33,839 nucleotides of DNA, from NCBI GenBank assembly GCA_001790455.1, contig MGCP01000036.1:353-34191 (forward strand). Direction: 5' to 3'. The stretch's first letter is position 1, and every line of letters begins with the position of its first letter. A model generated the notes under the pieces. It did not search any database, was not told where the DNA came from, and saw only the letters and a program-made list of their open reading frames with translations. The DNA comes from Candidatus Saccharibacteria bacterium RIFCSPHIGHO2_02_FULL_47_12 (GTDB taxonomy: Bacteria; Patescibacteriota; Saccharimonadia; Saccharimonadales; JANWIN01). Shown here piece by piece: positions 27,859 through 33,839 of the stretch. The translations under genes and the position numbers were made by a program.

Positions 27859-27913
27859 GTCACACTTTTTTGCTTTACTTGGTCACACTTCTTCGCTTGA
27901 CTTGGTCACACTT
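27859..27913 (+). repeat. Three GTCACACTT direct repeats at exact 23-bp phasing
   Basis: Copies at 27859-27867, 27882-27890 and 27905-27913. The last two extend to GCTT(T/G)ACTTGGTCACACTT. Confidence 0.85.
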
Positions 27914-27925
27914 TGAGCCGATAAT
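27897..27925 (+). promoter_or_regulatory. Promoter of the 27984 membrane-protein gene
   Basis: TTGACT, 17-nt spacer, GATAAT. The third GTCAC repeat sits in the spacer, 8 nt from the start of the -35. Confidence 0.6.
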
Positions 27926-27983: not shown

Positions 27984-28919
27984 ATGAAGAATCTGGCTAA
28001 AAAGTTGACTCAGCATAACAGGGATCCGTTCTATCGGGGTTATTCTTGGACAACCAAGCTTATGTGGCTTTTGCGGTATCTAGGGGGGCGGGCAACAGCG
28101 CAAATAAGGAAGCTACGATGGACTACTTTGATAACAATCCTAGCGATCCTATCTATACTACCCACCAGCATATATGCAGCTAGTATTGCCCAGGGTTATA
28201 CATCGAGCGACAAAGGGTTGCAGGTAGGCATGGCTGCCTCACTAGTAAATCCAGAATCCGGTACTACCGGTGAGGTAGAAGCGGCGACAAACAAAACCCA
28301 GGACAAGTTTGTAGGAATAGTTACAACAAAAGACACAAATTCAGTAGTTATAACTGACAAAAACCAAACGGTTTATATTACAACAGAAGGACAAACTAAG
28401 GCCCTGGTGTCTGATGTAGGGGGTTTAATCAAGCAGGGAGATCATTTAACGCTCTCACCGCTTAGAGGTTACCTCATGAAGGGTAACTCCTCTGACCTAA
28501 AAAGTGTCGCTGTAGCGCTTGAGGACTTTCCCAGTCAAAACAACACCAAGGTAGAGGTAAAGGACGTAGACAATCAAATAAAAGCTGTACAAGCAGCCTC
28601 TATGGGCGTAGAAGTACGCAGACCAGAGTTTGTAGATGTCACCTATAGCAAGCGCCCACTACTAACAAATTTTGCTCGGTCACTAACGGGTAAAGAGGTA
28701 AGCCAGTGGCAGGTAATTATAGCTCTAGTAATCTTCTTTGTACTTTTGGTAGCCATTGGTTCTGTCATATACAGCGCAGTCCACAGCACCATAGAGGCGC
28801 TAGGGCGGAACCCCTTGGCGAAAGCAGACATCTATAAAGAATTTATGCAGGTTTTGCTCATCTCTGTTGCCATATTAATTTTTGGCGGACTGATGATTTT
28901 CGTACTTTTGTGGTTATAG
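27984..28919 (+). CDS. Hypothetical membrane protein (N-terminal anchor, ~170-aa external domain, two C-terminal TM helices)
   Basis: 311 aa. Hydrophobic segments LITILAILSILPTSIYAA, VIIALVIFFVLLVAIGSVIYSAV and VLLISVAILIFGGLMIFVLLWL. No recognisable catalytic motif. Confidence 0.7.
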   Translation: MKNLAKKLTQHNRDPFYRGYSWTTKLMWLLRYLGGRATAQIRKLRWTTLITILAILSILPTSIYAASIAQGYTSSDKGLQVGMAASLVNPESGTTGEVEAATNKTQDKFVGIVTTKDTNSVVITDKNQTVYITTEGQTKALVSDVGGLIKQGDHLTLSPLRGYLMKGNSSDLKSVAVALEDFPSQNNTKVEVKDVDNQIKAVQAASMGVEVRRPEFVDVTYSKRPLLTNFARSLTGKEVSQWQVIIALVIFFVLLVAIGSVIYSAVHSTIEALGRNPLAKADIYKEFMQVLLISVAILIFGGLMIFVLLWL

Positions 28920-28944: not shown

Positions 28945-29016
28945 CAGTGTTGCAAATCATGAATGAAGAAGAGGGTGAATAACCCTATTTCGTAATGTCA
29001 AGATTTTGCAACACTG
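28945..29016. repeat. 12-bp perfect inverted repeat with a 48-nt loop
   Basis: CAGTGTTGCAAA (28945-28956) pairs with TTTGCAACACTG (29005-29016). An inner AGGGT-GAATAA-CCCT hairpin is also present. Confidence 0.6.
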
Positions 29017-29162
29017 TGGATAAGTACGGCAAAACGTCACAACAAACACCTTGAAGATAATATATTTTTTACAACGTTAAAGTACGGGAAACAGATAGGC
29101 ATAAGGGTTATTAATTTCATAAAACCAGGTATTAATTTCTAGGGTAAATTATTAGTGCAAAA

Positions 29163-29214
29163 GTCACGTTTTATATCTTGACGCTGTCACGTTTTGGGCG
29201 GATAATTGTCACAG
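29163..29214 (+). repeat. Three GTCAC direct repeats spaced 23 and 22 bp
   Basis: GTCACGTTTT at 29163-29172, GTCACGTTTT at 29186-29195 and GTCACAG at 29208-29214. Confidence 0.8.
29178..29206 (+). promoter_or_regulatory. Promoter of the giant surface-protein gene
   Basis: TTGACG, 17-nt spacer, GATAAT. A GTCAC repeat sits in the spacer at the same +8 offset as at 27897-27925. 19 of the 26 positions that follow the shared CTTGAC match between the two promoters. Confidence 0.6.
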
Positions 29215-29264
29215 TAACTGAACACAAAATTTAATAAACCAAAAATAACAAAGCTGATACAAAA

Positions 29265-32200
29265 ATGACTAAAACCTGCCAAGCCTGTAACACAGTTTTT
29301 GAAGGGCGCCGTCATGCCAAGACGTGTTCAGACAAATGCCGCAAGCGGATGCAGCGTTTGGCACAAGCGGCAGCCCAAGAGCTTGAACGGGTTGAGGTAC
29401 GTGCCGAAAATACAGTCCGCGATGTCGCCCGTGAAGTGCGGCGGGACGTGCAGACAATAGAGACTTCTTTGGGCAAAGTTGCAGGAAGCCAAGCAGGGTT
29501 TGCGGCTATAGCCGAGCCACTGGTTGCTCCTGGCGTGGCAAAGCAGGCTTATCAGACTCCGTCACAACCTAGACAGACACAGATTGCCAGTAGCCAGCCC
29601 GTAGCACAGACACCCACCATACCTAGCCCGAGCCCAGAAGCAGATGTGACACCAAACATAGTTTCTGACTTGCCGGTGGCACCGGCTCCCAAACAGTCGG
29701 TACCTCAGCCCAAACCAGTAGAACAAACCGTGCAAATTGTGCACGAGCCCATTTCGCAGCCAGCAGCAGCCCCACCACCAATAACTAACACGGCTAGGCT
29801 AGGTATAGACGTAGTACCTGCTAAACCAAACCAGCCAGTACCTGCACCACAACCCAATTCTTCATACAAATCTGTGGATCCGGATTACATACTAACTCCG
29901 GTTGATTCTAACGCTGGGGTATCAAATTTAGCTAAGCCCGCGCAAACCCAACCAAAACCACCGGTTCAGCCTGCTGTAACCCCGCTGACAGGGCAGGCAC
30001 AACCCCAATCAGTGACAATTCCCACACCCCAAATACCAGTATCGACGTCACTGCCAGAAGCCGAATCGCTAGAATCCCAAACCGTTGCCGAGCAAAAGCC
30101 AGATCAGGCCTTTGCTGGCGCTTCAAGCCAGGACAGCCAACAAAACACCTTTGCCAGCCAGTTCCAACCTCAATCACAGACAGAGGCTAAATCCAGCCAA
30201 CCAGAAGCTAGTGGGCTGGTTAAGGCAAAGAAACGTTTGTTTAAAGTAAACAAAACCTTGGTAAAACTTGCTGGGGTTGCTGCTCTGCTAACTCTTTTGG
30301 TCGGTGGATGGGGTCTGTACATAGGCGATCACACCCGACCAGATACGGGCTCTGTTACACAAAGCATACCAGAGCAAACGCTTGGTCTATCTGCCTCGGA
30401 AATAGCTCGTCTAAGCGGTGACTTTCCTTATAACCAACAACAACAACTGTTAGTCCAGGGAGACGGTATATTTACGGGCAACCTAACGGCGGCTAACTTT
30501 GTGGGCGGTGGTGCTGGTTTGACAAGCCTAAATGCCAGCAATATTTCATCTGGCACCATTAGCGCGGACCGTCTGCCAGATAACGTTACGCTGCTTGGCG
30601 ACAGTATTCCGCTTGCCAACCTGCAGGGTTCGGTCGTATCGAGCCTAAACAACGTTACCAACAATGGCGGAAACATCAATCTGGTGGCTGGCGCTAACAT
30701 TACCATAACAGCCGATGATGCCACCGACGCAATTACCATTAGCGCAGATTTGCTGGGTGGCGGCTCTAGCTTTGGCGACATTTTCAACAACGGCCAAACC
30801 GGCCCGGTTCGTATTGGTACAAACGACGCCACGAGCACCATTTTAGAAACCAATGACACAGATCGGCTAACTATAGACAGTAGTGGCACCTTTACGTTTA
30901 ACGGTAGCGCATCTAGCAACATTGTATTTGGCGGGGTAACAGTCTCTGCCGCCGAGCTAAACCTTCTAGACGGCCACGACGTAGCCCTGGTAGACGTAAA
31001 CGACGCCGTAAATACAGCCATAATTGGCACCGGCGCTCTAAACGTCGGTTCTATAACCTCTGGTTTTGGTTCCATAGACACCGGAAGCGACAACATTACT
31101 ACCACCGGAACAGTCTTTGGCAACAACTTTGACCGGTCTAGCGCCGGAGGACTAACCTTTGGTGACACAAATGCGAGCAGTGTTTCTATTTGCAACTCAG
31201 CAAGCTGCGACACCGTGACCATAGGCACCAACACCGATGCCGACATTATATCTATAGGAGACGGCAGCGATACGCTCAATTTGACTGCTGCTACCACCAC
31301 CGTTAGTGGTCACACCAGTGGTGCTGCTAACGCTTTGGTGGTTACCAACTCTACCAGTACCGGCAATATTTTGGTCCTAAATGACAATATAACTACCGTA
31401 GCTACAGTAGCCGATGGCGGTGCAGTGACCTTCCAAAACTCAGCAGACTCTGCTGCGGCATTACGGATTCTAAATGCTGCTGGCACCGGTATTATTACTG
31501 CCGACACCAGTGCCGGCACGGTAAAGCTTGGAACTTCTGGCTCCTTGACCGGTGGCCTAGTATTTCAGCACGCTGTTGGTGCAGGCAGCATAGTCTTGCT
31601 GGGGGATAACCCGGGTGCTAGCAGCTACACCATCACTCTGCCGGCAGCCACCGGATCGGTTTGTCTAACCTCTGGCAACTGTGCTGGTGTAGGTGGCACC
31701 GGCGACTTACTAAACAACGGACAGCCAGGTGCTATCAGGGTAGGCACAAATGACGCCACCAGTTTGTTCTTAGAAACCAACAACACCGATCGCTTGACCA
31801 TTACAAGTGCTGGCAACGCTACCTACGTAGGCGGCACTACTGGCGATGCTCTAACTATCTCTAACTCTACATCTACCGGCAACATCCTGGTGCTACAAGA
31901 CAACCTAACAAACGTGCTAACTATTGCCGATGGCGGTGCAGCTACCTTCCAAAACTCAGTAGACTCAACCACTGGCTTTAGGGTGCTAGATCTAGATGGC
32001 GGTAACCCTGTTCTAAACGTAGACACACTAAACGAAAGGGTTGGGATTGGCCTATCTAACCCCGGCTATGCACTTGATATAAATGGTGATCTGAACCTGC
32101 AGCTGGGCAATGCCTTTCGCATAGGTGGCACAGCTATTTGTACCAGCGGTGGTTGTGCCGCCGAGGCTGGCTCTGCCAACTACATCCAAAACAGTGCTAG

Positions 32201-33839
32201 CTTGCAGGTAGGGGGCAACTTCTATATAGAGAGCGCTTCTATAAACAGTGTGGCGGGGGCCATAAAAGGCAAAACAGGCCAAGTGTCTGATTTGTTCCAG
32301 CTAGAAGACAGTAATGGTGTAGACGTAGTGACCTTTGGTGCTACCGGAAACTTGCTGGTCAAGCCGTCTACAAACTCTGCCAGTGCATTTCAGGTTCAAG
32401 ACTCGACAGGCAACAACTATATCGCGGCAGATACATCAGGCGGCGCGGTTAACCTATGTAATTCTGCCAATTGCGACACTGTGTCCATCGGCACCAACGC
32501 CGACGCCGATGCCATTAACATAGGCGACAGCCTAGACACCCTTACTCTCACTGGCAGCAGTGCCAGCACTATAGTCCTAAATGGCATAACCGTCTCTGCC
32601 GCCGAGCTAAACCTTCTAGACGGCCACGACGTAGCCCTGGTAGACATAAACGACGCCGTAAATACAGCCATAATTGGCACTGGTGCCCTAAACGTCGGTT
32701 CTATAACCTCTGGTTTTGGTTCCATAGACACCGGAAGCGACAACATCACCACCACCGGCACAGTCTATGGCAACAACTTTGACCGATCTAGTGTTGGAGG
32801 ACTAACCTTAGGTACCACAAATGCCAATGCGGTAACGGTTAGCAATAGTGGAGCCACAACCACTATCAATGGTGCCTCGGTTTCTATATCCAGTAGTGGC
32901 TTTCTTGCCTCTACTACTATTACGGGCGCGCTAACTCTAAATCTTGGTAATGCGACAACGACGGTTATTAATCAACGGTCGTCTGGAGGTGGCGTTATTG
33001 GTATTGGCGACAACGCTGTAGCTAATACCATCTATATCGGCGCCAACGGTGTCAACACAGGCAATACTCAGACAATTTTACTTGGTGCTCTCGGTGCGGC
33101 TGGCACTACCAACGTCACTATCGGTAGTAACAACAACGCCACAGCAGGTACTACTACCATCCAATCAAAAGGCACACTGGCAGTTGGGAATACTATTTCA
33201 CCCACCATCAACATCCAGGGTGGCGCAGCTGGCACCATTGGCATTGGTAATAATGCTGTAGCCAATACCATCCAAATTGGCGCCACCTCTACCGGTGGCA
33301 ATACGCAAACAGTCAACATTGGCACCAACAACGCCGCCGGCACTACCAATGTCACAATTGGCACAGGATCATCCGCCACCGCCGGTACCACTACCATCCA
33401 ATCAAAAGGTGCTCTGGCGCTCGGTAATAGTATCAGCTCATCTATCGCTATCCAGGGTACTGTAGACGGTGGTGGCATAAGTATTGGCACCTCTAATACA
33501 ACCGCCGGCATTGCGCTTGGTGGTAGCACCCAAACAGGTACGATTACCATTGGGCAGTCACTGGTTACGAATACCATTAATATTGGTGCTGCTGGGTCCA
33601 GTTTTGGTACGCAGACTATCAATATTGGCAATACTTCTAATGGGGGCGCTATTGTAAACACAACTTTAGGATACGCGGGCGCCAATAGCACGTCCCCAAC
33701 TGCTTCGGCAACAGTTATCCAATCAGGGAGTGGCAATATCAAACTCAATGCCAATGGTGGTAGTGTGCTGGTTCAAAATTCTACCAACAGCAATACTGCG
33801 TTTATGATCCAGAACGCCAATGCTAGCAATACCATATTC
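29265..33839 (+). CDS. Giant repetitive cell-surface protein, 3'-truncated by the window end (at least 1525 codons)
   Basis: I translated it by hand in the frame of ATG 29265. An in-frame TAA lies at 29235, and I found no stop through 33839. MTKTCQACNTVFEGRRHAKTCSDKCRKRMQR is a Cys4 motif. It is followed by ~240 aa rich in P/Q, then KKRLFKVNKTLVK plus the TM helix LAGVAALLTLLVGGWGLYIG (~30267-30326), then G/T/N/S/A-rich repeat modules. The ORF is absent from the track, presumably because it has no stop in the window. Confidence 0.9.
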   Translation, partial: MTKTCQACNTVFEGRRHAKTCSDKCRKRMQRLAQAAAQELERVEVRAENTVRDVAREVRRDVQTIETSLGKVAGSQAGFAAIAEPLVAPGVAKQAYQTPSQPRQTQIASSQPVAQTPTIPSPSPEADVTPNIVSDLPVAPAPKQSVPQPKPVEQTVQIVHEPISQPAAAPPPITNTARLGIDVVPAKPNQPVPAPQPNSSYKSVDPDYILTPVDSNAGVSNLAKPAQTQPKPPVQPAVTPLTGQAQPQSVTIPTPQIPVSTSLPEAESLESQTVAEQKPDQAFAGASSQDSQQNTFASQFQPQSQTEAKSSQPEASGLVKAKKRLFKVNKTLVKLAGVAALLTLLVGGWGLYIGDHTRPDTGSVTQSIPEQTLGLSASEIARLSGDFPYNQQQQLLVQGDGIFTGNLTAANFVGGGAGLTSLNASNISSGTISADRLPDNVTLLGDSIPLANLQGSVVSSLNNVTNNGGNINLVAGANITITADDATDAITISADLLGGGSSFGDIFNNGQTGPVRIGTNDATSTILETNDTDRLTIDSSGTFTFNGSASSNIVFGGVTVSAAELNLLDGHDVALVDVNDAVNTAIIGTGALNVGSITSGFGSIDTGSDNITTTGTVFGNNFDRSSAGGLTFGDTNASSVSICNSASCDTVTIGTNTDADIISIGDGSDTLNLTAATTTVSGHTSGAANALVVTNSTSTGNILVLNDNITTVATVADGGAVTFQNSADSAAALRILNAAGTGIITADTSAGTVKLGTSGSLTGGLVFQHAVGAGSIVLLGDNPGASSYTITLPAATGSVCLTSGNCAGVGGTGDLLNNGQPGAIRVGTNDATSLFLETNNTDRLTITSAGNATYVGGTTGDALTISNSTSTGNILVLQDNLTNVLTIADGGAATFQNSVDSTTGFRVLDLDGGNPVLNVDTLNERVGIGLSNPGYALDINGDLNLQLGNAFRIGGTAICTSGGCAAEAGSANYIQNSASLQVGGNFYIESASINSVAGAIKGKTGQVSDLFQLEDSNGVDVVTFGATGNLLVKPSTNSASAFQVQDSTGNNYIAADTSGGAVNLCNSANCDTVSIGTNADADAINIGDSLDTLTLTGSSASTIVLNGITVSAAELNLLDGHDVALVDINDAVNTAIIGTGALNVGSITSGFGSIDTGSDNITTTGTVYGNNFDRSSVGGLTLGTTNANAVTVSNSGATTTINGASVSISSSGFLASTTITGALTLNLGNATTTVINQRSSGGGVIGIGDNAVANTIYIGANGVNTGNTQTILLGALGAAGTTNVTIGSNNNATAGTTTIQSKGTLAVGNTISPTINIQGGAAGTIGIGNNAVANTIQIGATSTGGNTQTVNIGTNNAAGTTNVTIGTGSSATAGTTTIQSKGALALGNSISSSIAIQGTVDGGGISIGTSNTTAGIALGGSTQTGTITIGQSLVTNTINIGAAGSSFGTQTINIGNTSNGGAIVNTTLGYAGANSTSPTASATVIQSGSGNIKLNANGGSVLVQNSTNSNTAFMIQNANASNTIF
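30942..31174 (+). repeat. Intragenic repeat A1 (VSAAELNLLDGHDVALVD.NDAVNTAIIGTGALNVGSITSGFGSIDTGSDNITTTG..)
   Basis: ~93% nt identity to 32592-32824, including identical runs of 54, 34 and 59 bp. The offset is exactly 1650 bp (550 codons). Confidence 0.9.
32592..32824 (+). repeat. Intragenic repeat A2
   Basis: Partner of 30942-31174. Confidence 0.9.
33000..33479 (+). repeat. Tandem ~237-240-bp (79-80 aa) repeat units, with a third degenerate unit to ~33750
   Basis: Unit starts are GGTATTGGCGACAACGCTGTAGCTAATACCATC (33000) and GGCATTGGTAATAATGCTGTAGCCAATACCATC (33240). A shared 20-mer ACTACCATCCAATCAAAAGG occurs at 33153 and 33390. Confidence 0.85.

Follow-up and report, generated by a model that had tools for sequence, protein, structure and literature searches.

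What does a giant surface protein do with a zinc finger on the inner side of the membrane, and why should its gene carry a promoter interleaved with direct repeats? These questions are raised by a stretch of 33,839 nucleotides (nt), hereafter the window, from contig MGCP01000036.1 of Candidatus Saccharibacteria bacterium RIFCSPHIGHO2_02_FULL_47_12. At its end, 29265-33839, begins a gene of 4,782 codons, the first 1,525 of them within the window, whose product is a giant membrane-anchored surface protein predicted to lie N-in/C-out (+ strand, as are the protein and promoter features described below). A first-pass annotation, made from the letters of the window alone, had drawn attention to this open-ended frame and to the unusual order of a Cys4 head, a spacer rich in proline and glutamine (P/Q), a transmembrane (TM) helix and repeats reminiscent of phage tail fibres. 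We show here the architecture of the protein, the family of surface proteins that its head defines, the dedicated promoter element to which this family is tied, and a covariation between residue 31 of the head and one base of that promoter. The family and its promoter are additions to the earlier annotation, and together with the covariation they form the basis on which a putative role of the protein in its own regulation is weighed below.

An N-terminal zinc finger as the mark of a surface-protein family

The frame is open from the ATG at 29265 to the edge of the window, 1,525 codons without a stop (translation of 29265-33839), and its absence from the list of open reading frames (ORFs) has a mechanical cause, since the listing program leaves out ORFs that run off an end. 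The minus-strand ORFs listed across the region (29932-30177, 30428-31300, 32417-32761 and 33068-33754) are antisense and lie inside the giant gene. The ATG is the only possible start, as the nearest in-frame stop on its 5′ side is the TAA at 29235-29237 and no other start codon stands in between. Looking up the complete neighbouring gene at 27984-28919 led to the same locus in several independent assemblies of the European Nucleotide Archive (ENA) and the Joint Genome Institute (JGI), where the product is called at 4,782 amino acids (aa). In one of them (L001), with 13 differences from the window in 5,856 nt, the protein runs on to 3,218 aa without a stop; this extension beyond the window, which the first-pass annotation had proposed as a way to the stop codon and the C-terminal domain, brought CBM_4_9 and Kelch domains to light but did not reach the stop. 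Differences among assemblies within the 4,575 nt are mostly synonymous (10 synonymous vs. 2 non-synonymous). The calls at 4,782 aa, the extension in L001 and the prevalence of synonymous change therefore show that this is a real gene under purifying selection, of which the window holds the first third.

The head opens with a Cys4 treble-clef zinc finger, C5-x2-C8-x12-C21-x3-C25 (29277-29339, aa 5-25), assigned from an AlphaFold2 (AF2) model and the alignment, and runs into a modeled 43-residue helix (29331-29459, aa 23-65) whose basic N-terminal part, CRKRMQR, includes R31. It is followed by QAGF (29490-29501, aa 76-79), a case of a short [EQ][GA]GF motif, by a low-complexity P/Q/A/S-rich linker that would serve as a cytoplasmic tether (29505-30221, aa 81-319; P 18%, Q 13%, A 12%), by a K/R cluster, KAKKRLFKVNKTLVK (30222-30266, aa 320-334), that flanks the TM helix on its cytoplasmic side, and by that single helix itself, LAGVAALLTLLVGGWGLYI (30267-30323, aa 335-353), a signal-anchor according to its hydropathy. 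All the parts named in the first-pass annotation are thus present, though the second cysteine spacing, given there as C-x11-C, is in fact x12. The TM helix is the sole strong hydrophobic helix, with 7 K/R in the preceding 20 residues, and the same plan is seen in 28 relatives, the family mean of net charge falling from +3.2 ahead of the helix to +1.2 past it. Hydropathy and the positive-inside rule together predict that the giant protein is bitopic, with ~334 residues in the cytoplasm and >4,400 outside, and the charge distribution agrees with the earlier placement of the head on the cytoplasmic side and of the K/R cluster N-terminal of the helix.

In the AF2 model of the head, calculated from a 68-sequence alignment (mean predicted local distance difference test, pLDDT, 96.5), strands 2-4 and 11-13 flank C5/C8 in a beta-hairpin and C21/C25 stand at the start of helix 23-65. 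We are confident, on this model, that the head is a treble-clef zinc finger by fold class with a predicted zinc site, in line with the earlier description of a Cys4 head that combines a zinc-ribbon-like motif and a basic helix. A word-indexed protein search with the head alone returned no relatives; the 83 reported here come from phmmer, run exhaustively against 1.84 billion representatives. The signature common to the family, C-x2-C-x3-F-x-GR-x-DAKTCS-x-RCRKRLQRA, lies at the extreme N-terminus, and an alignment of 48 sequences shows no variation at C5, C8, F12, C21, S22, C25 and R31. The named cellular relatives belong to Ca. Saccharimonadales and Patescibacteria and include a protein of 7,609 aa. 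The head scores 15.2 bits against Pfam DUF2256 (PF10013; gathering cut-off 25.0) and 10.6 bits against DUF2116 (PF09889; 26.8); weak matches are given by 40 of the 48 family members to the former (best E 0.0043) and by 32 to the latter (best E 1.1e-4), none of them at cut-off. Against the Protein Data Bank (PDB), Foldseek gave no match with E<=0.001, the nearest being YacG, eL24 and the CGNR finger of 3h0n, and sequence searches with the head and with its profile gave nothing significant. On these comparisons the head appears to be an undescribed module that belongs to no curated family.

Its closest likenesses are found among phage proteins. The head superposes at 0.5-1.3 A on the zinc modules of phage HNH, NinG and GIY-YIG proteins (viral models), and the finger recurs in HNH endonucleases and as the N-terminal module of ~200-aa Prim-Pol primases of phages (phrog_8643, E down to 1e-65); other viral carriers are small soluble proteins, and the viral forms have no TM helix. 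With a match to phrog_6975 (E=5e-6), 20 viral loci carrying a related finger and stand-alone relatives of 45-97 aa, the resemblance to phage and small stand-alone proteins noted in the first-pass annotation proved well founded. The DUF2116, DUF2256 and phage Prim-Pol/HNH fingers (phrog_8643, phrog_1271, phrog_15471, phrog_6975) share with the head the pattern C-x2-C...F...C-S-x2-C-R/K and the hairpin followed by a helix, the sequence matches being sub-threshold to modest; the head of the candidate phyla radiation (CPR) differs in its own signature, GR.DAKTCS.RCRKRLQRA, in its 43-residue helix and in its fusion to membrane proteins instead of DNA enzymes. A 53-aa stand-alone relative (P0155, L010 883-1044) adjoins a phage-type integrase on a 333-kb contig, a mobile-element setting unlike that of the CPR surface proteins. 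Two further hits should be interpreted with caution: a protein with head and TM helix, whose 2.7-kb contig is labeled Candidatus Nitrosopolaris, an archaeon, in GenBank (P0026, HXY18115.1), where the label is probably a binning error, and a weak match in a Dehalococcoidia metagenome-assembled genome (L007 2353-2487; 44% over aa 28-72), which covers the helical part only and is probably not a true head.

The head is mostly paired with membrane proteins. The order of head, P/A/S-rich linker (85-300 aa), single TM helix and ectodomain (up to 2,471 aa) is seen in 28 of the 83 representatives, and the ectodomain is similar to that of the giant protein in 21 of these 28. A profile scan of contigs yielded 80 metagenome loci. 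In 43 of them head and TM protein are fused, and in 12 they are split, a head ORF of 62-72 aa running at its end into the start of the ORF for a TM protein of up to >3,301 aa; another 16 loci were too short for a decision and 9 were of other kinds. A head is thus paired with a TM protein, within one ORF or in an overlapping one, in 55/64 informative loci. As judged from these sequences, the head is the family-defining module of membrane-anchored surface proteins, which range in size from ~335 aa to the giants. At one locus (L008), identically in a second sample, the end of the head gene contains the AGGAG Shine-Dalgarno sequence and the ATG of a 4,402-aa gene; since the giant gene there has its own start, the head would also work as a free protein, genetically coupled to the giant gene. 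Tandem arrangements are seen at L021 (9986-16048 and 16773-20153), L052 (8463 and 9818), L067 (3558 and 4871), L036 and L049: at some loci two head-bearing genes follow one another, each of those in L021 with its own TCAC-containing upstream region, and some proteins carry two heads 46-52 residues apart, which would fit binding to direct repeats. The [EQ][GA]GF motif, often ATEGGF[VI]GD and ~60-70 residues past the first Cys, is present in 22/91 unique members vs. 0.24 expected by shuffling, and might be a site of interaction or cleavage.

Gene callers may systematically truncate members of this family. The JGI call for P0001, in the syntenic locus L112, starts ~950 nt too late (2047-3001), and the true ORF, beginning MIKTCQICNQSF, includes the head and the P/Q linker. 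P0001 was rejected as a head-less control, its head having been hidden by the mis-called start. Truncation of this kind would therefore leave the family under-annotated.

The dedicated promoter and its covariation with residue 31

Upstream of the giant gene, at 29163-29212, three GTCAC direct repeats are interleaved with a promoter consisting of a -35 element TTGACG (29178-29183), a 17-nt spacer and a -10 element GATAAT (29201-29206); the repeats lie at 29163-29172 (GTCACGTTTT), 29186-29195 (GTCACGTTTT) and 29208-29212 (GTCAC). The neighbouring gene at 27984-28919 has a promoter of the same type at 27859-27925, with three GTCACACTT direct repeats (27859, 27882, 27905), TTGACT at 27897-27902 and GATAAT at 27920-27925. 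When the upstream regions of head genes were aligned on TTGAC, the consensus AAA.TCAC...TTTACA.CTTGACa..GTCACGCTTATGC.tGATAATT was found in 57 of 64 non-redundant loci, with repeats placed in the -35/-10 spacer and ~23 bp upstream of it.

This element is almost confined to head genes. The strict form GTCAC-N16-20-GTCAC precedes 19/64 head genes vs. 1/136 control ORFs from the same loci (Fisher p=7.5e-10). The composite TTGAC-N3-4-[GT]TCAC-N9-12-(-10) precedes the head in 45 loci, with three further matches in 1.24 Mb scanned on both strands and none in the 20 viral loci. Two of the three also precede heads, namely that of L048, where the start is over-extended, and that of the second tandem head gene in L021; the third is the promoter of the gene at 27984-28919, the sole composite in the 1.24 Mb not directly upstream of a head-bearing gene. 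The motif pair occurs four times in the window vs. 0.16 expected, all within the promoters of these two genes. Head-less giant relatives (L113-L115) are without the promoter, and the syntenic orthologue in L112 has both head and promoter. That the TCAC repeats are a general promoter feature of these genomes was rejected on the control ORFs and the 1.24-Mb scan.

Head and promoter also vary together. The first base of the spacer repeat (offset +8 from TTGAC) is G in 38/38 unique heads with Arg31, and T or A in 9/9 heads with Leu, Lys or Gln at this position, with no exceptions. In a tree inferred with column 31 masked, the non-Arg31 state falls into at least three clades nested among Arg/G relatives. 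Because the covariation had first been spotted by eye, all 1,980 pairs of a head column and a promoter column were scanned, and residue 31 with offset +8 came out on top (normalised mutual information 0.95, next 0.71) as the only pair with 45/45 concordance. Arginine and guanine are a classic recognition pair. In the upstream repeat the first base may be G, A or T where residue 31 is Arg; where it is another residue, G is never found.

Two other features recur in the upstream regions. The leaders of the head genes (29213-29264 in the window, and others) are A-rich, with AACAAAAA in 31/64, and there is no obvious Shine-Dalgarno sequence before the head ATG. Farther upstream stands TGTGGATAA (29015-29023), a perfect DnaA-box-like 9-mer and the only occurrence in the window. 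First detected as an enriched 8-mer, the 9-mer (TGTGGATAA or, in the other orientation, TTATCCACA) is present as a single copy ~160-220 bp upstream of the -35 in 45/69 head-gene upstreams, those of L008 and L012-L091 included, and is ~40-fold enriched relative to the rest of the loci; a reading of it as part of an extended -10 was rejected because of this distance and because it occurs in either orientation. A perfect 12-nt inverted repeat, CAGTGTTGCAAA and TTTGCAACACTG (28945-28956 and 29005-29016, 48 nt apart), lies just past the stop of the gene at 27984-28919, its right arm abutting the DnaA-box-like site.

A putative membrane-tethered autoregulator and its alternatives

We consider it probable, from the sequence patterns described above, that the giant protein is a membrane-tethered DNA-binding autoregulator, the (G/T)TCAC repeats in the promoter of its own gene being the sites bound by the head. 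The head would be a sequence-specific DNA-binding domain that recognizes these repeats, with Arg31 reading the G. If transcription starts ~7 nt past the -10, the spacer repeat would be at about -27 to -23 and the others near -50 and, in this gene, near -5; since one repeat lies inside the spacer of a near-consensus sigma-70 promoter, repression is the likelier sign, and the head most likely represses its promoter. Each fibre inserted into the envelope would keep one repressor head in the tiny cytoplasm, and the number of fibres, or their state or cleavage, could therefore feed back on the transcription of the costly giant gene and of the neighbouring gene at 27984-28919.

Such a plan resembles regulators of the ToxR/CadC/TcpP type, in which an N-terminal cytoplasmic DNA-binding domain (a role that the head would fill here), a linker, one TM helix and an extracytoplasmic domain allow regulation from the membrane. 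Those proteins have an OmpR-type winged helix, for which the giant protein gave no Pfam match, and a small periplasmic sensor, whereas here a Cys4 treble-clef is joined to a fibre of 4,400 residues with carbohydrate-binding modules (CBM) and Kelch propellers; moreover, the apparent target is the protein's own promoter, and the head domain also occurs as a separate, translationally coupled ORF.

Several points weigh against an autoregulator and call for caution. The support is entirely computational, and the DNA has to be within reach of a head fixed at the membrane; here, a disordered tether of ~240 residues in a very small cell could suffice, and co-transcriptional membrane insertion of the product of a 14-kb gene would keep the locus nearby. 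The strict element is not found at the fixed offset in ~1/3 of the loci, and the looseness of the upstream repeat means that a simple code of one residue for one base fails for some sites. The covariation amounts to only ~3 independent events on a tree from ~50-residue sequences. Promoter and head may be inherited together as a 5′ module, so their co-occurrence alone leaves open what binds the repeats. Finally, no solved structure matches the head significantly, the best, YacG (E=0.63), being a protein-binding finger.

The head could instead be a device for biogenesis or topology, a fast-folding zinc domain that holds the N-terminus inside or recruits an insertion or secretion factor for so long a substrate, with some other regulator acting on the TCAC repeats. 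Arrangements of an N-terminal zinc ribbon, a linker and a TM helix are common in monoderm bacteria, the head always stands at the extreme N-terminus, before the signal-anchor, and the evidence for DNA binding by the head is indirect. We nevertheless regard this role as unlikely: the head is a separate small protein in the twelve split loci and in L008 and L009, and is therefore not a covalent topology plug or targeting signal; the covariation of Arg31 with G would be left unexplained; and in phages the related fingers belong to DNA enzymes.

A variant that retains DNA binding, which seems to us rather doubtful, casts the fibre as a Notch-like sensor of contact or tension. Engagement of the glycan-binding fibre at the host cell, its shedding or its cleavage would alter the availability of the head and so reprogram a small TCAC regulon made up of surface genes, either through proteolytic release of the head or through clustering of the heads of an oligomeric fibre, and the DnaA-box-like site upstream would add cell-cycle input. 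If true, such a sensor would provide genome-reduced, epibiotic CPR bacteria with a direct wire from envelope to promoter that needs no two-component system.

It is quite unlikely, in our judgment, that the head is instead a protein-binding finger, anti-sigma-like or YacG-like, which sequesters a cytoplasmic partner at the membrane, be it gyrase, a sigma factor or a protein of the cytoskeleton, and signals through it. The best PDB fold match is indeed the gyrase inhibitor YacG, and the layout of an N-terminal zinc domain, a TM helix and extracellular CBMs resembles that of zinc anti-sigma factors and RsgI, where a small cytoplasmic N-terminal domain couples an outside state to transcription. 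The fold matches are not significant, however, and the anti-sigma motif H-x3-C-x2-C is absent from aa 1-334. Among the Pfam matches of the giant protein there is no RsgI_N, zf-HC2 or other anti-sigma family, no sigma-factor gene is seen among the annotated neighbours as a possible partner, and the promoter hexamers are sigma-70-like, not of the extracytoplasmic function (ECF) type. With repeats inside such a promoter, direct binding of DNA by the head would set the giant protein further apart from the RsgI/zf-HC2 systems.

Ectodomain, chromosomal setting and significance

The G/T/N/S/A-rich extracellular region begins at 30324 and fills the rest of the window (30324-33839, aa 354-1525). It comprises a membrane-proximal conserved region (30417-30764), a duplicated module whose copies are ~79% identical (30855-31223 and 32526-32867, aa 531-653 and 1088-1201), a Cys-loop module (31878-32450) that contains SANYIQNSASLQVGGNFYI, and short repeats (32844-33674, aa ~1194-1470). 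This part gave no match in Pfam, PHROG (E<=0.01), NCBIfam or PDB sequences, and an AF2 model of the module at aa 872-1062, calculated from a 7-sequence alignment, was unusable (mean pLDDT 45.7) and was discarded. Past the window at least four CBM_4_9 domains and two Kelch propellers follow, all above Pfam cut-offs; in L001 CBM_4_9 scores 67.2, 35.9 and 42.0 bits (cut-off 25.9) and Kelch_KLHDC2 91 bits (cut-off 50), none of them inside the window, and the recorded Pfam matches of the full 4,782-aa product are of the CBM_4_9 and Kelch types only. Seven homologues of the ectodomain were found, N-anchored giant proteins with E down to 1e-164. From its fibre-like repeats, glycan-binding CBM_4_9 domains and Kelch propellers, the giant product is predicted to be a surface fibre or adhesin.

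The first-pass annotation had likened these repeats to tail fibres and to fibres of the intramolecular-chaperone type, and a phage-derived fibre gene, as the remnant of a prophage or tailocin fused to a phage zinc ribbon, would be one source of such a protein. The likeness has a weak footing, in that the homologue P0004 ends in Peptidase_S74 (30.1 bits, cut-off 22), the CBM region past the window also matches NCBIfam GTA_spike_fiber, the G/T/N/S-rich repeats are fibre-like and the finger has phage relatives. Peptidase_S74 (PF13884) was, however, not found in aa 1-3,218 nor among the recorded Pfam matches of the 4,782-aa product, and the six complete head-bearing relatives show LVIVD, CBM, Kelch or no known domains, never S74. 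The ectodomain has no PHROG tail-fibre match, and a TM signal-anchor is at odds with a virion fibre. Nor is there a phage context: the neighbours of the giant gene encode FtsA, FtsZ, NrdR, a class II ribonucleotide reductase, isoleucyl-tRNA synthetase (IleRS) and ribosomal protein L21, rRNA genes lie in the same window, and synteny is kept in another Saccharibacterium. An exact-sequence look-up identified the window proteins as GenBank OGL29591-OGL29597 of Candidatus Saccharibacteria bacterium, and the host replicon is a chromosome of Candidatus Saccharibacteria (Patescibacteria/CPR), not a phage. A phage origin is therefore largely refuted, and we give it very little weight.

An artefact, either a frame left open by chance in repetitive DNA of biased composition or a chimera made in assembly, which the low-complexity composition and the long shadow ORFs on the other strand could have suggested, is refuted by the independent assemblies in several ENA and JGI samples, the mostly synonymous substitutions, the strength of the homologues and the Pfam domains above cut-off in the continuation.

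The gene at 27984-28919 encodes a membrane protein of 311 aa, probably co-regulated with the giant gene, for which no Pfam or NCBIfam family was found at cut-off; it is syntenic in L112 (483-1325), where it shows 42% identity to a protein of 280 aa. Between this counterpart and the giant gene, L112 carries a 118-aa gene (1384-1740) with matches to the Pfam families bAvd and 23S_rRNA_IVP, which may have an accessory role in a diversity-generating retroelement and has no counterpart in the window. The window itself starts within a 23S rRNA gene (1-1416; model positions 1674-2925), followed by 5S rRNA (1527-1641), and no tRNA genes were found in it.

Very large N-anchored envelope proteins with glycan-binding domains are also known as the giant adhesins of Saccharibacteria and other CPR bacteria, and in Southlakia epibionticum transposon sequencing (Tn-seq) has revealed multiple adhesins with polysaccharide-binding domains that are needed for epibiotic growth (PMC10633639). 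In the literature that we searched, the coverage of which is incomplete, there was no report of a cytoplasmic zinc-finger head or a shared promoter on such adhesins.

The Saccharibacteria and CPR bacteria are host-attached, have few recognizable regulators and devote a large share of their genomes to giant surface proteins of unknown control. If the giant protein is indeed an autoregulator, a DNA-reading domain in the tail of an adhesin, together with a matching promoter, would allow surface fibres to be counted or sensed by simple means, and the surface coat would be linked to its own transcription. Residue 31 and the first base of the spacer repeat, Arg31 with G and Leu, Lys or Gln with T, offer a recognition pair that is open to test. 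The combination of the head with the TCAC promoter provides a sequence signature by which this class of genes can be found in metagenomes.

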